Shown piece after piece: positions 28,874-36,803 of a stretch of 64,000 bases of DNA. The DNA is taken from positions 569,250 through 633,249 of the forward strand of contig OZ242028.1 of the NCBI GenBank assembly GCA_965205005.1, given 5' to 3'. Origin of the DNA: Longimicrobiales bacterium (GTDB lineage Bacteria > Gemmatimonadota > Gemmatimonadetes > Longimicrobiales > Gaopeijiaceae). Numbering within the stretch: position 1 is the stretch's first letter; each line of letters starts with the position of its first letter. Both the position numbers and the translations under genes were made by a program. The notes under the pieces were generated by a model that ran no database searches, was not told the DNA's origin, and worked only from the letters and a program-made list of their open reading frames with translations.

Positions 28874-28947
<74 letters not shown>

Positions 28948-31990: not shown

Positions 31991-32479
31991 ATGAGAACGC
32001 TGAACTCAGTCCTGGGCTTGTCGGTACTGTTGGCGGGGTGCGCCGGGGCCGGTGACGGAGAGCTCACCGATGCCGAGCGTGCGGCGCTTGGCGACTCCAT
32101 ACGTCTGTTCGCCAACGAGATGGTCGAGACCATCGATGGTCACGATGTGGACGGCTTCATCGGATATCACCTGGACGGCCCCGACTTCGCCTGGGCGAGC
32201 CGCGGGGAGATCACCCCGCTGGAGTCACATCGTGCCTCGATGAAGGAGTACTTCCCCGGCGTCGGAAGGAACGTGCACTTCACGCTCGGAGAAAGCACAG
32301 TGCACGTGCTGGGCCGGAACGCCGCGGTGGCCACGTCGGTGATTCACTCGACCAACGTCGGCGAGGATGGAGAGCCGACCAGCGGTCACGAGGTCTGGAG
32401 CATCGTGGTGCAACGCATAGAGGGCGAGTGGAAGGTGGTGCAGGTGCACGAGTCGTACCCGCCGACCCCGGACCCCTAG
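31991..32479 (+). CDS. SnoaL/NTF2-like (DUF4440-like) lipoprotein
   Basis: MRTLNSVLGLSVLLAGC lipobox. The C-terminus EVWSIVVQRIEGEWKVVQVHES is typical of an NTF2-fold. The stop overlaps the stop of the convergent gene (CTAG at 32476-32479). Confidence 0.6.
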   Translation: MRTLNSVLGLSVLLAGCAGAGDGELTDAERAALGDSIRLFANEMVETIDGHDVDGFIGYHLDGPDFAWASRGEITPLESHRASMKEYFPGVGRNVHFTLGESTVHVLGRNAAVATSVIHSTNVGEDGEPTSGHEVWSIVVQRIEGEWKVVQVHESYPPTPDP

Positions 32480-33186
32480 CGAGGGGTCGGGCCCACCCAC
32501 CGCCCGGGCCGAGTCCCCGCTCCCGGAGCGGGCGCGCCGGCCACCAGAATGCCGTCCTCGTCGACGAGGGTCGCCAGCCCCGCCCCCCGCACCCATCCCC
32601 GCGCGGCCGCGGTCGCCTCCCTGATCACGATCCTGCCACCCGGCATGAGCACGCGCAGACACTCCCCCCACCACCCCTCCCCCGCCCCGCCATCGGCCAC
32701 CACCCCACGCACCACACCGTCGCGCAGCGGCAGCGCTGGCCCCGTCACGAACGCGCTCACCCCGGCAGCCATCAGCCCCCGGCCGCCCCACCCCACCACC
32801 ACCACCTCGATCCCGGCGACCAGCTTCGCGAGCGGCGCGGCCTCGTCGCGGCAGCCGTCCGGCACGACCATCAGCCCGGGCCCCCGCGCCACACCCAGCG
32901 CCGCGGCGAGCTTCAGCGCACGCGTCGCCGCGTCGTCGCCCCGGTCTCCCGCAGGCGCGCCTGCACCGCCATCCCCGCCGCCACGCGCGTCCCCCGGCCC
33001 CGCACTGCGCGGCGGCGGCCTCAAATCCCCGAATCCCCCCTCCACCGGGAACCGGTCACGGCAGTTGGGGCACCCGAACTCGCCGTCGTGGACGCGGCGG
33101 TCGCGCACGTCGTGCGCCAGCAGGATGAGCCCGAACGGCGGGCCACAGCGCGGACAGACGAGGTGGTCGGTGAGGGCGACGTTCAC
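32476..33186 (-). CDS. Trm112-like zinc-ribbon protein fused to a methyltransferase-like domain
   Basis: GTG 33186 overlaps the upstream stop (GTGA). LVCPRCGPPF...FGCPNCRDRFPVEGGFGDL is a Trm112-type CxxC...CxxC ribbon. The C-terminal part ends in LRVLMPGGRIVI (methyltransferase motif-like). Confidence 0.5.
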   Translation of the reverse strand: MNVALTDHLVCPRCGPPFGLILLAHDVRDRRVHDGEFGCPNCRDRFPVEGGFGDLRPPPRSAGPGDARGGGDGGAGAPAGDRGDDAATRALKLAAALGVARGPGLMVVPDGCRDEAAPLAKLVAGIEVVVVGWGGRGLMAAGVSAFVTGPALPLRDGVVRGVVADGGAGEGWWGECLRVLMPGGRIVIREATAAARGWVRGAGLATLVDEDGILVAGAPAPGAGTRPGRWVGPTPR

Positions 33187-33917
33187 GCCCGCTCGATCCG
33201 GAGCAACGGGACCGCCACGGTCTCGGGCAGCCCGGCCACGAAGCCGACCGCGCGCGCCACGTCGGCGGGACGGAGCATCTGGCCGCGGCCGGGAAGGTTG
33301 GGGGACGAGTCGGGCGCCAGGGGGTCCCAGATCGGGGTGTCCACCGCCCCGGGCTCCAGGAGGCACGCCCGCACGCCGGTCCCGCGAATCTCCTCCAGCA
33401 GTACTTCGTGAAAGCCCCGCAGGCCGAACTTGGACGCCGAGTAGGCACCGTTCTCGGGGAACGCCCGCCACCCCGCCACCGACCCCACGTGCACCACCAG
33501 CCCGGATCCTGCGGCCAGCATGCCCGGCAGGAACGCCCTCGTCACATTGAACGCGCCCTTCAGGTTCGCGTTGAGGTTGCGGTCCAGCACGGCAGCGCCC
33601 GTCTCCGCCACCCGCGCCAGATCGAACACGCCCGCGGCGTTGACGAGCACGGCAAGTCCGCCATCGGCGGCGGCCTCCGACCCCGCACCGACCTCCCGCA
33701 CCACCGCAGCCCGCGCCCCCTCGACCTCGGCCTCGACCGCCACATCGAACGGCAGCGCGACGGCGCCGACCTCGCCCGCCAGACGCACGAGGCGCTCCCG
33801 GCGGCGGCCACCCGCGAACACCCTGAACCCGTCGGCCGCCAGGCGCCGCACGATCGCCTCGCCGATCCCGCCCGTCGCCCCCGTGACCAGCGCGGTGCGG
33901 TCGGCGCCGTTACCCAC
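33183..33917 (-). CDS. SDR family oxidoreductase
   Basis: TGATGGIGEAI cofactor motif and YSASK catalytic motif. Confidence 0.85.
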   Translation of the reverse strand: MGNGADRTALVTGATGGIGEAIVRRLAADGFRVFAGGRRRERLVRLAGEVGAVALPFDVAVEAEVEGARAAVVREVGAGSEAAADGGLAVLVNAAGVFDLARVAETGAAVLDRNLNANLKGAFNVTRAFLPGMLAAGSGLVVHVGSVAGWRAFPENGAYSASKFGLRGFHEVLLEEIRGTGVRACLLEPGAVDTPIWDPLAPDSSPNLPGRGQMLRPADVARAVGFVAGLPETVAVPLLRIERA

Positions 33918-34326
33918 CCGAGTACTCCACCCAGTGACGCGGCGTCTCGCGCAGCACCAGCCTGTCCAGCGCAGCCGGCGGCGGCACCAGCGGCGCGAGC
34001 CGCTCCCAGATCTTCACCACCAGGTTCTCGGTCGAGGGGATGACCCCTTCGAGCCAGGGCACGTCCAGGTTGAGGTTGCGGTGGTCCAGGTCGGCCACCA
34101 CGCAGCTGTTGACCAGGTCCTTGAGATCCTTCAGATCCATGACGTAGCCCGTTTCGGCGTCCACCGGGCCCGCGACCGTCACCTCGAGCTCGTAGTTGTG
34201 CCCGTGCCAGTTGGGATTCGCGCAGTCGCCGAAGACGCGACGGTTCCTGTCGTCGTCCCACTCGGGCCGGGCCAGCCGGTGCGCGGCGCTGAAGTGGAGC
34301 CGGCGGGTGATTCGCACGTCAGGCAT
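33910..34326 (-). CDS. queD: 6-carboxytetrahydropterin synthase / 6-pyruvoyl-tetrahydropterin synthase family (QueD-like)
   Basis: FSAAHRL, CANPNWHGHNYELEV (Cys...HGH zinc/catalytic motif), DLDHRNLN. AGGAG SD 8 nt upstream. Confidence 0.85.
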   Translation of the reverse strand: MPDVRITRRLHFSAAHRLARPEWDDDRNRRVFGDCANPNWHGHNYELEVTVAGPVDAETGYVMDLKDLKDLVNSCVVADLDHRNLNLDVPWLEGVIPSTENLVVKIWERLAPLVPPPAALDRLVLRETPRHWVEYSGG

Positions 34327-34351
34327 CTGTGATGACTCCTGGGGGTTGGCG

Positions 34352-34391
34352 CCAAAAACAAGGGTCGGCGCCCACGACGGAGCGCCGACCC
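34352..34391 (-). terminator. Intrinsic terminator on the minus strand, about 26 nt upstream of the queD start
   Basis: Minus-strand RNA: GGGUCGGCGC-UCCGUCGUGG-GCGCCGACCC (10-bp GC stem, 10-nt loop) followed by UUGUUUUUGG. Confidence 0.6.
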
Positions 34392-34393
34392 CC

Positions 34394-34575
34394 GGCGGCC
34401 CGGGAGAGAATGCCCGGCCGCCTGCGTGCCGGAGGGTGTAACCTGAAGCCCGGGCTTAACTCTTGGTGACTCCCCCACTGCTTTCGCAGTCCCCGTGAAC
34501 GAGGCGTGACGTCCACCGCGGGAGGCAGTCCCGGCTCTTCCAGTGTTGGCTCAAATACGAAGCCCTCCAGCACGG
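34394..34575 (-). promoter_or_regulatory. Candidate structured cis-regulatory RNA (riboswitch-like aptamer plus a GC hairpin) in the fumC-queD spacer; class not identified
   Basis: A 12-bp closing helix pairs CGUGCUGGAGGG (34563-34574) with CCCUCCGGCACG (34425-34436). It contains one U-G pair that would be an A-C mismatch on the plus strand. The interior holds hairpins GCGGUG-GACGU-CACGC, CCUCG-UUCA-CGGGG and ACUGC-GAAA-GCAGU (GNRA). A separate hairpin GGCGGCCGGG-CAUUCUCU-CCCGGGCCGCC (34394-34422) abuts the terminator. Confidence 0.4.
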
Positions 34576-34612
34576 CCCGAATATGAGGTGCGACCGCCGC
34601 CGCCGCAAGCCC

Positions 34613-36007
34613 TCAGCTGCCCGGCACCCCCGGCTCGGTCATCTGGCGCACGTCCAGGGCCTCGTCCAGCTCGTCCGGGTCGATCAGCCCCATCTCCTCC
34701 ACCACCTCGCGCACCGACCGTCCCTCGCTCGCGGCCTTCTTGGCCACCACGGCAGCCTTGTCGTAGCCGATGTACGCGTTCAGCGCCGTCGCAATCGACG
34801 GGTTCCGCTCCAGCAGCTCCCGGGCCCGCTCCGGACGCGCCGTGATCCCGGCGACGCACCGGTCGGTGAAGACCGCGGCAGCGTTGCCCAGCAGCGTGAT
34901 CGACTCCAGCAGCGCGTCGGCGATCACCGGCATCATCACGTTGAGCTCGAAGTTCCCGCGCTGGCCGCCCACGGTGACCGTCGTCGCGTTCCCCATCACG
35001 CGCGCGCACACCATCATCAGCGCCTCGCAGATCACCGGGTTGACCTTGCCCGGCATGATCGAACTTCCCGGCTGCACGGCCGGCAGCTGAATCTCCGAGA
35101 TGCCCGACGTCGGCCCGCTCGCCAGCCAGCGGATGTCGTCCGCGACCTTCATCAGGCTCGCCGCCACCGTATTCAGCGCCCCAGCCAGCGACACGCACGC
35201 GTCCTTGGCGCCCTGCGCCTCGAAGTGGTCCTCGGCCTCGCGGAAATCGATCCCGTACCGGGCCGCGACCCTGGCCATCGTGCGGCTCGCGAACTCGGGA
35301 TGCGTGTTGATCCCGCTCCCGGTCGCGGTCCCGCCCAGCGCCACCTCGGCCAGCTCCTCGCCGGCGCGCTCCACGCGTTCGATCCCCTTCTCGACCTGCC
35401 GCGCATAGCCCCCGAACTCCTGTCCCAGCCGCACCGGCGTCGCGTCCATGAGGTGGGTCCGGCCCGACTTCACGATGCCGTCGAAGTCGCGCGCCCTGTC
35501 CGCGAGCGCCCCCTGCAGACGGCCAAGCGACGGGACCAGCTCGTCGCGGATCGCCGCCCGGCAGGCGATGTGGATCGCCGTCGGGATGATGTCGTTCGAC
35601 GACTGCCCGTAGTTGACGTGGTCGTTCGGATGCACGTGCGCCGATCCCGCCGCCGAACGGTTGGCCAGCGCCGCGATCACCTCGTTCGCGTTCATGTTGG
35701 TGGAGGTGCCGGACCCCGTCTGGTAGATGTCCAGCGGAAAGTGCTCGTCCCAGCGCCCCTCCGCGACCTCCCGCGAAGCCGCCGCGATCGCCTCCCCCCG
35801 CTCGGCCGAAACCAGCCCCAGCTCCACGTTCGTCTCGGCCGCAGCCTCCTTCAGCCGTCCCAACGCCTCGATGAACCGCCGCCCGAAAGGCCGCCCGCTG
35901 ATCGGAAAGTTGTCGATCGCCCGCTGCGTCTGGGCGCCGTAGAGAGCGTCGGCGGGAACCCGCACTTCGCCCATGGAGTCCTTCTCGATTCGATGGGATC
36001 GTGACAT
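34613..36007 (-). CDS. fumC: Class II fumarate hydratase
   Basis: Trimmed to MSRSHRIEKDSMGEVRVPADALYGAQTQRA. GSSIMPGKVNP signature; TGSGTSTNMN. Confidence 0.92.
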   Translation of the reverse strand: MSRSHRIEKDSMGEVRVPADALYGAQTQRAIDNFPISGRPFGRRFIEALGRLKEAAAETNVELGLVSAERGEAIAAASREVAEGRWDEHFPLDIYQTGSGTSTNMNANEVIAALANRSAAGSAHVHPNDHVNYGQSSNDIIPTAIHIACRAAIRDELVPSLGRLQGALADRARDFDGIVKSGRTHLMDATPVRLGQEFGGYARQVEKGIERVERAGEELAEVALGGTATGSGINTHPEFASRTMARVAARYGIDFREAEDHFEAQGAKDACVSLAGALNTVAASLMKVADDIRWLASGPTSGISEIQLPAVQPGSSIMPGKVNPVICEALMMVCARVMGNATTVTVGGQRGNFELNVMMPVIADALLESITLLGNAAAVFTDRCVAGITARPERARELLERNPSIATALNAYIGYDKAAVVAKKAASEGRSVREVVEEMGLIDPDELDEALDVRQMTEPGVPGS

Positions 36008-36083
36008 GATCGTACTCTTGGCTTGGCTGAGGTGGCGTGCGAACCGCCCGCGCACGGCGGACGAACGAGGAAAGATAGCAACG

Positions 36084-36803
36084 ATGACTCCAGTCGCACT
36101 CGTGACCGGCGGGGGGGTCAGGGTGGGGAGGGCGATCGCCCTGGCGCTGGCCGAGGACGGATACGACCTGCTGGTCAGCTACAACACGTCGCCTGCGGGT
36201 GCCGCCGAGGTCGAAGCGGCGGCCAGGCGGACCGGAAGGCGTGCCCACGCGGTGCGCGCCGACCTGTCACGCGAAGAGGATGCAGTCCGCCTGGCGCGCC
36301 TCGCCCGGGAGCGGTTCGGTCGCCTCGACCTGCTGGTCAACTCGGCCGCGAGCTTCGTCGCCAACGACCTGCTCGATGTCGCCGCCGACGAATGGGACGC
36401 GGTCATGGCGGTGAACCTGCGCGCGCCCTTTCTCCTGATCCGCGAAACCGCCGCGATGCTGCGCGCCACCCGGGGCGCCGTCGTCAACATCGCGGATCTC
36501 TCCGCGCTGCGGCCCTGGACGAGCCACCCGCACCACGCGGTGTCGAAGGCCGGCCTGCTGCACCTCACCCGGGTCGCCGCCAAGCGGCTGGCGCCCGAGG
36601 TGCGCGTCAACGCGGTGGCGCCGGGGTACGTGCTGCCGCCCGAGCACCACAGCGAGGCCGAGATCGAACGCACCCGGCGGCGCGTCCCGCTCGGCCGCGT
36701 GGGCACGCCCGGCGACGTGGCGAGCGCCGTTCGGTTTCTGGCCCGGGCCGGCTACGTCACCGGCCAGGTTATCGTCGTCGACGGCGGCCTGGGGCTCGGG
36801 TAG
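36084..36803 (+). CDS. SDR family oxidoreductase, pteridine reductase-like
   Basis: MTPVALVTGGGVRVGRAIALALAEDGYDLLVSY and HHAVSKAG (YxxxK variant region). GAGGAAAG SD upstream. Assignment to the pteridine reductase subfamily is by resemblance only. Confidence 0.7.
   Translation: MTPVALVTGGGVRVGRAIALALAEDGYDLLVSYNTSPAGAAEVEAAARRTGRRAHAVRADLSREEDAVRLARLARERFGRLDLLVNSAASFVANDLLDVAADEWDAVMAVNLRAPFLLIRETAAMLRATRGAVVNIADLSALRPWTSHPHHAVSKAGLLHLTRVAAKRLAPEVRVNAVAPGYVLPPEHHSEAEIERTRRRVPLGRVGTPGDVASAVRFLARAGYVTGQVIVVDGGLGLG

Follow-up and report, generated by a model that had tools for sequence, protein, structure and literature searches.

A probable divergent 6S-type RNA gene at the head of a pterin operon in Gemmatimonadota

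Introduction

6S RNA is a known RNA that binds RNA polymerase and dampens its activity. Its published consensus has a closing stem, a terminal loop, and a central bubble that is single-stranded and bordered on each side by conserved G-C pairs (PMC4064990). Work on the Escherichia coli RNA placed the start of its product RNA at U44, with RNA polymerase preferring a purine start (PMC3299989). The E. coli gene, ssrS, lies 20 nucleotides (nt) upstream of fau (ygfA), the gene for 5-formyl-tetrahydrofolate (5-formyl-THF) cyclo-ligase, and this linkage is conserved in many bacteria (PMC4064990). Lactic acid bacteria have lineage-specific 6S RNAs that were missed by the Rfam model and that end in a terminator (PMC8414754), and the Ms1 RNA of Actinobacteria is a lineage-specific, rod-like, 6S-related RNA that is likewise missed by the 6S model (PMC9130861). 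RNAs upstream of folate and pterin genes, including folE, are also known from the THF-I and THF-II (folE motif) riboswitches (PMC6800512). Here, we describe a 286-nt spacer in a 64-kb stretch of DNA from a Longimicrobiales bacterium of the phylum Gemmatimonadota (contig OZ242028.1, positions 569,250 to 633,249; hereafter the window). The spacer lies on the minus strand between the stop codon of fumC (34613-34615), whose product is a class II fumarase (Lyase_1 and FumaraseC_C), and the start codon of a PTPS-family gene, and it is probably the gene for a divergent 6S-type RNA, the ssrS equivalent of this Gemmatimonadota genome.

The original prediction for this spacer, made from its sequence alone, was of a structured leader, closed by a 12-bp long-range helix and followed by an alternative hairpin and a terminator, that would act as a transcription-attenuating riboswitch for a queD-like gene. 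That prediction is partly supported by the comparative analysis described below: what it observed largely holds, whereas its riboswitch interpretation does not.

Methods

Coordinates are those of the window, and the RNA is read on the minus strand. A PTPS protein query was used to collect 80 loci from contigs representing one genome per species. Metagenome contigs were searched for the RNA first, by a pattern scan that returned at least 120 stretches, and 80 of these loci were examined. Copies were confirmed with a covariance model, R1, that has 154 positions and 41 pairs; a second model, R2, is broader. All copy counts are lower bounds, the total being at least 128 (48 genome loci and at least 80 metagenome loci). 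Covariation figures refer to 100 distinct copies (50 in an earlier round), the terminator survey to 120 non-redundant copies, and the promoter survey to 112 homologous loci, with TTGAC-N16-19-TAnnnT as the strict motif. Rfam 15 (4227 families) was scanned permissively, with E-values up to 10, against the window copy and 30 homologues (31 copies, 84 kb); the gathering score of the 6S family, RF00013, is 46.4 bits. The 6S hypothesis was set down ahead of the homologue searches with RF00013. Pairing that could compete with the terminator was evaluated from duplex energies, by comparing cognate terminator arms with non-cognate arms and with shuffled strands.

Conservation and structure of the RNA

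Evidence that the spacer is more than ordinary spacer, as the original prediction had claimed, comes from its conservation. At least 128 copies of the RNA were confirmed by covariance model, with scores of 50-152 bits. All 48 genome loci that carry it belong to Gemmatimonadota, and each of the 80 metagenome loci examined was confirmed by R1 (72-152 bits). The close relatives of the PTPS protein are likewise all from Gemmatimonadota (Longimicrobiales and Gemmatimonadales), and the PTPS loci of Bacteroidota and Rhodothermales gave no R1 match. In nucleotide comparisons by blastn, the central ~150 nt enclosed by the 12-bp helix was conserved upstream of the PTPS gene down to about 68% identity, and alignments revealed invariant blocks together with a covarying outer helix; about 25-30 positions of the RNA are at least 97% conserved. 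The RNA occurs once per contig in 160 loci. R1 found a single copy in the window, at 138.6 bits (E 3e-29), on the minus strand and no match on the plus strand, in agreement with the earlier argument, drawn from U-G pairs, that the minus strand is the one that folds.

The RNA is 148-158 nt long across copies and about 152 nt in the window. Its six helices are all nested and hence form a rod (Table 1). The closing stem, P1, which is the 12-bp helix of the original prediction, is present in the minimum free energy (MFE) fold and is the best-supported helix, with 97% of cells paired and double changes in all 11 of the 11 pairs. P2 (UUGAGCC/GGCUUCAA, with one U bulged) adjoins the central bubble with pairs that are G-C or C-G in 99-100 of 100 copies. 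Beyond the bubble, the terminal arm includes P3 (GGGAC/GUCACC), P5, which has 4 bp of the form CGNN/NNCG and covaries clearly, and a tip hairpin (34491-34504; helix 6) that is 96% paired; helices 3-6 together have double changes in 15 of 21 pairs. In some lineages, the 3' strand of the bubble can form a small hairpin of its own. Of the two inner hairpins that had been singled out from the sequence, CCUCG-UUCA-CGGGG is this conserved tip. The other, ACUGC-GAAA-GCAGU, is confined to the window and its closest relatives and is not conserved; in the family as a whole the same bases make up the 3' strands of P5 and P4.

Covariation upstream of homologous genes, which the original prediction had proposed as a check, provides evidence for selection on this fold. 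Changes on both sides were found in 30 of the 41 modelled pairs, and none of 500 shuffles matched the observed covariation values. In the modelled structure, 94.9% of cells are paired, compared with 43-57% when partners are slid by 1-3 columns, and the covariation score is 0.479, compared with about 0.1 for slid partners. The folding energy of the sequence, in contrast, does not differ significantly from that of shuffled sequences (z = -1.44 for the minus strand and -1.24 for the plus strand). Since the folding energy is not unusual, the single sequence provides no proof of structure, and the evidence is comparative. A crude screen for additional covarying pairs or pseudoknots returned only G/U-C noise. 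A different P2, formed by GAAGCC and GGCUUC, was considered and discarded: this pairing is not maintained outside the main clade, and the P2 of the model covaries (A-U to G-C). A protein-coding reading of the spacer (open reading frames [ORFs] at 34319-34573 and 34456-34608) was rejected since substitutions track base-pairing rather than codons. The spacer therefore encodes a real, conserved, structured RNA on the minus strand.

Table 1. Features of the RNA and its flanks, in window coordinates and ordered along the minus strand
Feature	Position	Strand	Remarks
-35-like hexamer TTGCGG	34603..34608	-	17 nt upstream of the -10-like hexamer; sequence match
-10-like hexamer CATATT	34580..34585	-	TATATT/CATATT just 5' of the RNA in most loci
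Core of the 6S-like RNA	34423..34576	-	154 nt matched by covariance model R1
P1 closing stem, 5' strand	34563..34574	-	Partner 34425-34436; compensatory changes in 11/11 pairs
P2, 5' strand (AUUUGAGCC), upstream of bubble	34548..34556	-	Partner 34441-34450
Central bubble, 5' strand (AACACUGGAAGAGCC)	34533..34547	-	14-20 nt, median 15 (100 copies)
Terminal arm: P3, P4, P5, tip hairpin CCUCG-UUCA-CGGGG	34465..34532	-	Helices 3-6 86-97% paired
Central bubble, 3' strand, variable sequence	34451..34464	-	13-18 nt, median 14 (100 copies)
P2, 3' strand (GGCUUCAGGU)	34441..34450	-	Aligned with the CaGGuUCaA block of the Rfam 6S consensus
P1 closing stem, 3' strand	34425..34436	-	MFE fold and covariation
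Extra GC hairpin, lineage-specific	34394..34422	-	Window, L004 and L022 only; outside the conserved unit
Intrinsic terminator: 15-pair stem, 6-nt loop, UUGUUUUUGG tail	34349..34394	-	Stem 34359-34394, then TTTTT
Shine-Dalgarno sequence AGGAG and PTPS gene	SD 34336-34340; gene 33910-34326, ATG 34324-34326	-	PF01242, E 8.9e-34

Comparison with 6S RNA

The original prediction had suggested a covariance-model scan against all riboswitch and small-RNA families. Scans of this kind matched no riboswitch family; RF00013 was returned, below its gathering score, in three homologous copies: L150 (24.1 bits), L092 (19.5 bits), and L047 (19.2 bits). For L150, the E-value is 0.0036 in 300 nt against all 4227 families. 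All three matches extend over model positions 1-187, lie on the same strand as the RNA, and are co-extensive with it, and there were no other RF00013 matches in the 84 kb searched. The matches are significant if only the pre-hypothesised family is considered to have been tested, and they remain under the threshold set by the curators.

Additional evidence came from the RF00013 alignment, in which the most conserved blocks of the Gemmatimonadota family fall on the conserved blocks of 6S RNA. These are UGAGCC.A on the 5' side of the bubble (CuGAgCC in the Rfam consensus), GGG at the opening of the terminal arm, cA.GCC...GGAAgC at the tip, CACC at the closing of the arm, and CaGG.UUCAA on the 3' side of the bubble. 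E. coli 6S RNA has the blocks in the same order, as CUGAGCC...CAUGCUCGG..CCGAGAAGCC...UUCACC...GGUUCAAG; the E. coli sequence used for this comparison matches annotated ssrS at 100% identity in 5426 of 5426 genomes. The rod shape, comprising closing stem, central bubble (~15/14 nt), and terminal arm, is shared between the Gemmatimonadota RNA and 6S RNA, as are, in the same order, the blocks UGAGCC, CA.GCC...GGAAG, CACC, and GG(Y)UUCAA.

The bubble itself was compared with published descriptions of 6S RNA. The three pairs that flank it upstream are GC in 100, CG in 100, and CG in 99 of 100 copies, and the three that flank it downstream are GC in 91, GC in 97, and GC in 85 (plus 12 GU). At the third position of the 5' bubble strand, all 100 copies have a pyrimidine (C in 94, U in 6). 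In the window this position is C34545, the equivalent of U44 in E. coli and a candidate start site for product-RNA synthesis. The size of the bubble, its bordering G-C pairs, and this pyrimidine agree with 6S RNA as defined in the literature (PMC4064990, PMC3299989). Further parallels are a promoter of sigma-70 type belonging to the RNA itself, here as a sequence match, and, as at E. coli ssrS, a folate or pterin gene immediately 3' on the same strand. In anatomy as well as in its conserved blocks the RNA resembles 6S RNA, and we regard the spacer as probably a 6S-type gene.

Several observations weigh against this assignment. The RF00013 gathering score was not reached, the best score being 24.1 bits, and only 3 of the 31 copies gave an RF00013 match; the window copy gave none, even when just 191 nt were searched. 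The reciprocal comparison was not significant: on E. coli ssrS, R1 scored 9.5 bits (E 0.089) and R2 8.3 bits (E 0.16), and although these matches, at 1213-1369, were co-extensive with ssrS (1201-1384), they were no better than spurious hairpins. At 152 nt, the RNA is also about 30 nt shorter than the 184 nt of E. coli 6S. The searches covered contigs, and a separate canonical 6S RNA may be encoded elsewhere, or a genome may have more than one copy. Finally, about 95% of copies, among the matches listed, lie directly upstream of the pterin operon and on its strand throughout the phylum. This tight synteny, whichever gene comes first, counts against a 6S RNA since the same pattern is expected of a cis-acting regulator. 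A literature search found no paper on 6S RNA in Gemmatimonadota, the candidate lists of older 6S surveys lying outside its coverage.

The low Rfam scores also bear on a different explanation, that the RNA is a small RNA of another kind whose resemblance to 6S is convergent: a protein-binding or trans-acting RNA tied to pterin metabolism, or a 6S-like RNA with another partner, in the manner of Ms1. The RNA does form an independent unit of promoter, RNA, and terminator, all of the Rfam evidence for 6S is below threshold, the reciprocal search was not significant, and Ms1 is a precedent for a 6S-related rod that binds a different form of the polymerase (PMC9130861). However, it would be unusual for a base-pairing small RNA to be conserved in both sequence and structure across a phylum, the most conserved positions are those of the 6S consensus blocks, in the same order and at the same structural places, and the bubble size, flanking G-C pairs, and invariant pyrimidine all fit 6S. 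Ms1 differs, moreover, in being about 300 nt long and in binding the polymerase core, whereas the Gemmatimonadota RNA has the 6S sequence blocks. We therefore consider a small RNA of another kind unlikely.

Promoter, terminator, and downstream transcription

Sequence matches to a promoter precede the RNA. The strict motif was found 36-46 nt before P1 in 52 of the 112 loci, and in none of them did it occur in the gap after the RNA. The form in the clade of the window is TTGCGR-17-CATATT, from which transcription is predicted to start at about 34573-34575, the first base of P1. At the other end, all 120 copies are followed by a GC-rich hairpin (medians: 15 pairs in the stem and 3 nt between it and P1), and at least three U are present in the 8-nt tail in 90 of the 120. 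The canonical terminator of the original prediction corresponds to this hairpin; in the window, 11 of the 15 pairs in its stem are G-C, and no other terminator-like site lies in 33800-36300. In ending at an intrinsic terminator that immediately follows its closing stem, the RNA differs from E. coli 6S, which is processed from a transcript with Rho-dependent termination inside ygfA (PMC3299989).

The AGGAG and the ATG described in the original prediction are both present downstream of the terminator. In the clade of the window, the terminator and its U-tail are separated from the ATG by about 25-35 nt. This gap has no room for a separate promoter, and the PTPS gene, which is the first gene of the pterin operon, is therefore probably reached by read-through of the terminator. 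Loci of the Gemmatimonadales type carry a second promoter-like element, TTGAC-N17-CAnCTT, after the terminator and before the PTPS gene (L123, L084, L158, L149, L121, L148, L144, L114, L102, L130, L138, L096, L160, L115, L082). In three of these (L160, L115, and L082), CATCTT is only about 7 nt before the ATG, a position that hints at leaderless PTPS mRNAs.

The gap between the RNA and the PTPS gene also contains, in four loci (L012, at 2748-2935, L068, L074, and L079), imperfect inverted repeats of GGGAGT or GGAGTC units. They form hairpins of ~190 nt located 3' of the terminator, give spurious matches to Rfam microRNA families, and may be REP-like elements.

Genomic context

In the window, the genes downstream of the RNA form a pterin operon (32476-34326, minus strand) of PTPS, of the C-x5-HGH type, an SDR gene that overlaps the end of the PTPS gene, and a zinc-ribbon ORF that has no match in Pfam or NCBIfam. 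The original prediction had called the first gene queD-like. Its membership in the PTPS family is borne out by PF01242, while its score against the NCBIfam QueD model, 69.8 bits, is below the cut-off of 89.25. The usual operon in relatives consists of PTPS, GTP cyclohydrolase I (PF01227), SDR, a COG0720 paralogue, and the zinc-ribbon ORF, as in L007 (3001-5833), L120, L135, and L159; it is this second COG0720 paralogue that passes the QueD cut-off. The conserved combination of PTPS, GTP cyclohydrolase I, and SDR suggests a biopterin-type pathway in Gemmatimonadota. PTPS is the first gene after the RNA in most metagenome loci, and GTP cyclohydrolase I directly follows the RNA in eight listed loci (L083, L084, L094, L095, L099, L103, L139, and L150).

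Three further features of the window were recorded. An ORF of 331 amino acids (32476-33471, minus strand) overlaps the SDR gene of the operon by ~290 nt; conservation begins near 33180, and its true start is probably internal. Another SDR gene (36084-36803, plus strand), divergent from fumC, scored 218.7 bits against NCBIfam PRK09135, under the cut-off of 288, so that calling it pteridine-reductase-like, as had been done, is reasonable. A tRNA gene (28874-28947, minus strand; 71.9 bits) was the only feature that Rfam gathering scores returned for the whole window.

The neighbour on the upstream side of the RNA varies, the largest cluster accounting for 14 of 96 loci, and fumC is directly upstream only in the clade of the window. 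The original prediction had assigned the structured spacer to the queD/PTPS-like gene, and this distribution agrees with it. It had also raised the alternative that the terminator merely ends the fumC mRNA, in which case the region would be a 3' untranslated region (UTR) with incidental structure. The arrangement in the window would allow this: fumC is encoded on the same strand, with its end at 34613, and the sole terminator-like site between 33800 and 36300 is the one at 34359-34394. Comparative data contradict it, since fumC is absent or more than 1 kb away in most loci, where the RNA stays with the pterin operon. Moreover, a promoter-like element lies between the fumC stop codon and the RNA, and the strong covariation indicates selection on the RNA fold itself, which contradicts an incidental 3' UTR. 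It is thus very improbable that the RNA is merely the end of the fumC transcript.

Five copies (L018, L062, L117, L131, and L136), with scores of 88-125 bits, have no co-oriented gene downstream. All five keep the terminator, and all but L117, for which 13 nt of upstream sequence are available, keep the promoter-like element. In L062 (1805-3022, minus strand), L117, and L131, a gene of the Na/Ca-exchanger family (PF01699) is located on the opposite strand between the RNA and the PTPS gene. In L018, a gene of this family (1732-~2950, minus strand) has the RNA, in inverted orientation, just 3' of it. In L136, it converges on a histidine-kinase gene, with no pterin gene within 2.8 kb.

Evaluation of the riboswitch model

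The original prediction took the succession of aptamer, alternative hairpin, and terminator for the architecture of a transcription-attenuating riboswitch. In the broader form considered here, the RNA would belong to a new class of riboswitches, or be a cis-acting attenuator of some other kind; it would sense an end product of pterin or folate type, such as tetrahydrobiopterin (BH4) or THF, and would control the operon by way of the terminator. Several observations favor this model. The RNA is directly upstream of the pterin operon, on the same strand, in nearly all listed loci with enough flanking sequence, even though the gene upstream of it is not conserved; expression of PTPS in the clade of the window must pass the terminator; about 25-30 positions are conserved at 97% or more; and the THF-II riboswitch upstream of folE provides a precedent (PMC6800512).

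Evidence against the model came from the search for a structure in competition with the terminator. By eye, the P1 3' strand seemed able to pair with the terminator base, but this pairing failed both the cognate/non-cognate and the shuffle tests: duplexes with the 5' arm of its own terminator had an energy of -7.5 kcal/mol, compared with -8.1 for non-cognate arms and -8.8 for shuffled P1 strands. Sliding a 12-nt window along the RNA against both terminator arms likewise revealed no clear or consistent cognate advantage. Without pairing that is specific for the cognate terminator arms, there is no switching platform. The GC hairpin at 34394-34422, to which the role of alternative hairpin had been given, is present as described; it was not, however, confirmed as a functional element, being confined to the window, L004, and L022, and it may be a recent insertion. 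The order of elements on which the riboswitch architecture was based is therefore not conserved.

Several other features argue against a riboswitch. The five copies without a co-oriented downstream gene score 88-125 bits and keep their own promoter-like element wherever upstream sequence is available; one clade has a promoter-like element between the terminator and the PTPS gene; the RNA is present as a single copy per contig; its shape is a rod rather than a compact multi-helix junction; and its conserved blocks are those of 6S. In addition, no riboswitch family of Rfam was matched even at E-values up to 10. This negative result covers preQ1-I, -II, and -III, THF-I and -II, ZTP, Moco, SAM, cobalamin, and the other Rfam 15 riboswitches, in the window copy and 30 homologues, and it extends the earlier remark that the core could not be matched to the preQ1, THF, ZTP, Moco, SAM, or cobalamin consensus. 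The absence of a match to THF-I or THF-II separates the RNA from these classes, as does its length, about three times that of the folE motif, and its form, a rod with a large symmetric bubble and no platform that competes with the terminator. A literature search for a PTPS- or BH4-linked riboswitch found no paper.

Permissive scans of the region also gave matches to asX1, suhB, and CC2171, which were set aside as terminator-like noise. Weak matches to whalefall-1 (RF01762), at 17-21 bits compared with a gathering score of 37, lie inside the terminal arm in four copies (L082 380-416, L114 828-864, L158 373-409, and L079 2774-2815) and probably reflect chance resemblance between hairpins.

Taken together, the missing competitor structure, the lone copies, the intervening promoter-like element, the rod shape, and the 6S blocks count against the call of a transcription-attenuating riboswitch, and a new riboswitch class or attenuator of this kind is quite unlikely. 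A related proposal is that the RNA is a genuine cis-regulator of pterin (BH4-type) biosynthesis, either as a riboswitch that dispenses with an antiterminator or as a bifunctional 6S-type RNA. In the bifunctional form, transcription of the RNA and read-through would couple the state of RNA polymerase to synthesis of the pterin cofactor. We regard this proposal, too, as improbable. If true, it would account for the association of 6S genes with folate or pterin genes in phyla far apart from each other (ssrS-ygfA in Proteobacteria, PTPS/folE in Gemmatimonadota).

Discussion

A 6S-type RNA, the explanation that we favor, would function as follows. The sigma-70-type promoter, TTGCGG-17-CATATT, would start the transcript at the first base of the closing helix, and the intrinsic terminator would end it, giving a rod of ~152 nt. 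This rod would consist of a closing stem (P1 and P2), a bubble with strands of 15 nt (5') and 14 nt (3'), and an arm formed by P3-P5 and the tip hairpin. By analogy with 6S RNAs that have been characterized, it would act as a mimic of an open promoter in the active site of the housekeeping RNA polymerase holoenzyme, and would be released when the enzyme, with the 5' bubble strand as template, makes a short product RNA. Synthesis of the product RNA is expected to start opposite C34545 and to read into the UUGAGCC helix, with a predicted sequence of 5'-GUUGGCUCAAAUA; this product would begin 5'-GUUGGCUCAA and be complementary to UUGAGCCAAC. Read-through of the terminator into PTPS and SDR would make the locus a dual-function unit like E. 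coli ssrS-fau (ygfA), with the difference that the neighbouring genes are those for PTPS, GTP cyclohydrolase I, and SDR rather than for 5-formyl-THF cyclo-ligase.

For Gemmatimonadota, a phylum known largely through metagenomes, the analysis yields a covariance model of a divergent, probably 6S-type RNA together with about 130 examples of it. Scores of the curated 6S model of Rfam stay below threshold in Gemmatimonadota, this probable 6S lineage is unannotated, and a riboswitch call that was plausible but wrong is corrected. The analysis also documents a conserved operon of PTPS, GTP cyclohydrolase I, and SDR genes, likely of biopterin type, in Gemmatimonadota. If the RNA is of 6S type, the locus is a second, apparently independent case of a 6S gene heading a cluster of folate or pterin genes, and a more general coupling may underlie the unexplained association of ssrS with ygfA in Proteobacteria.

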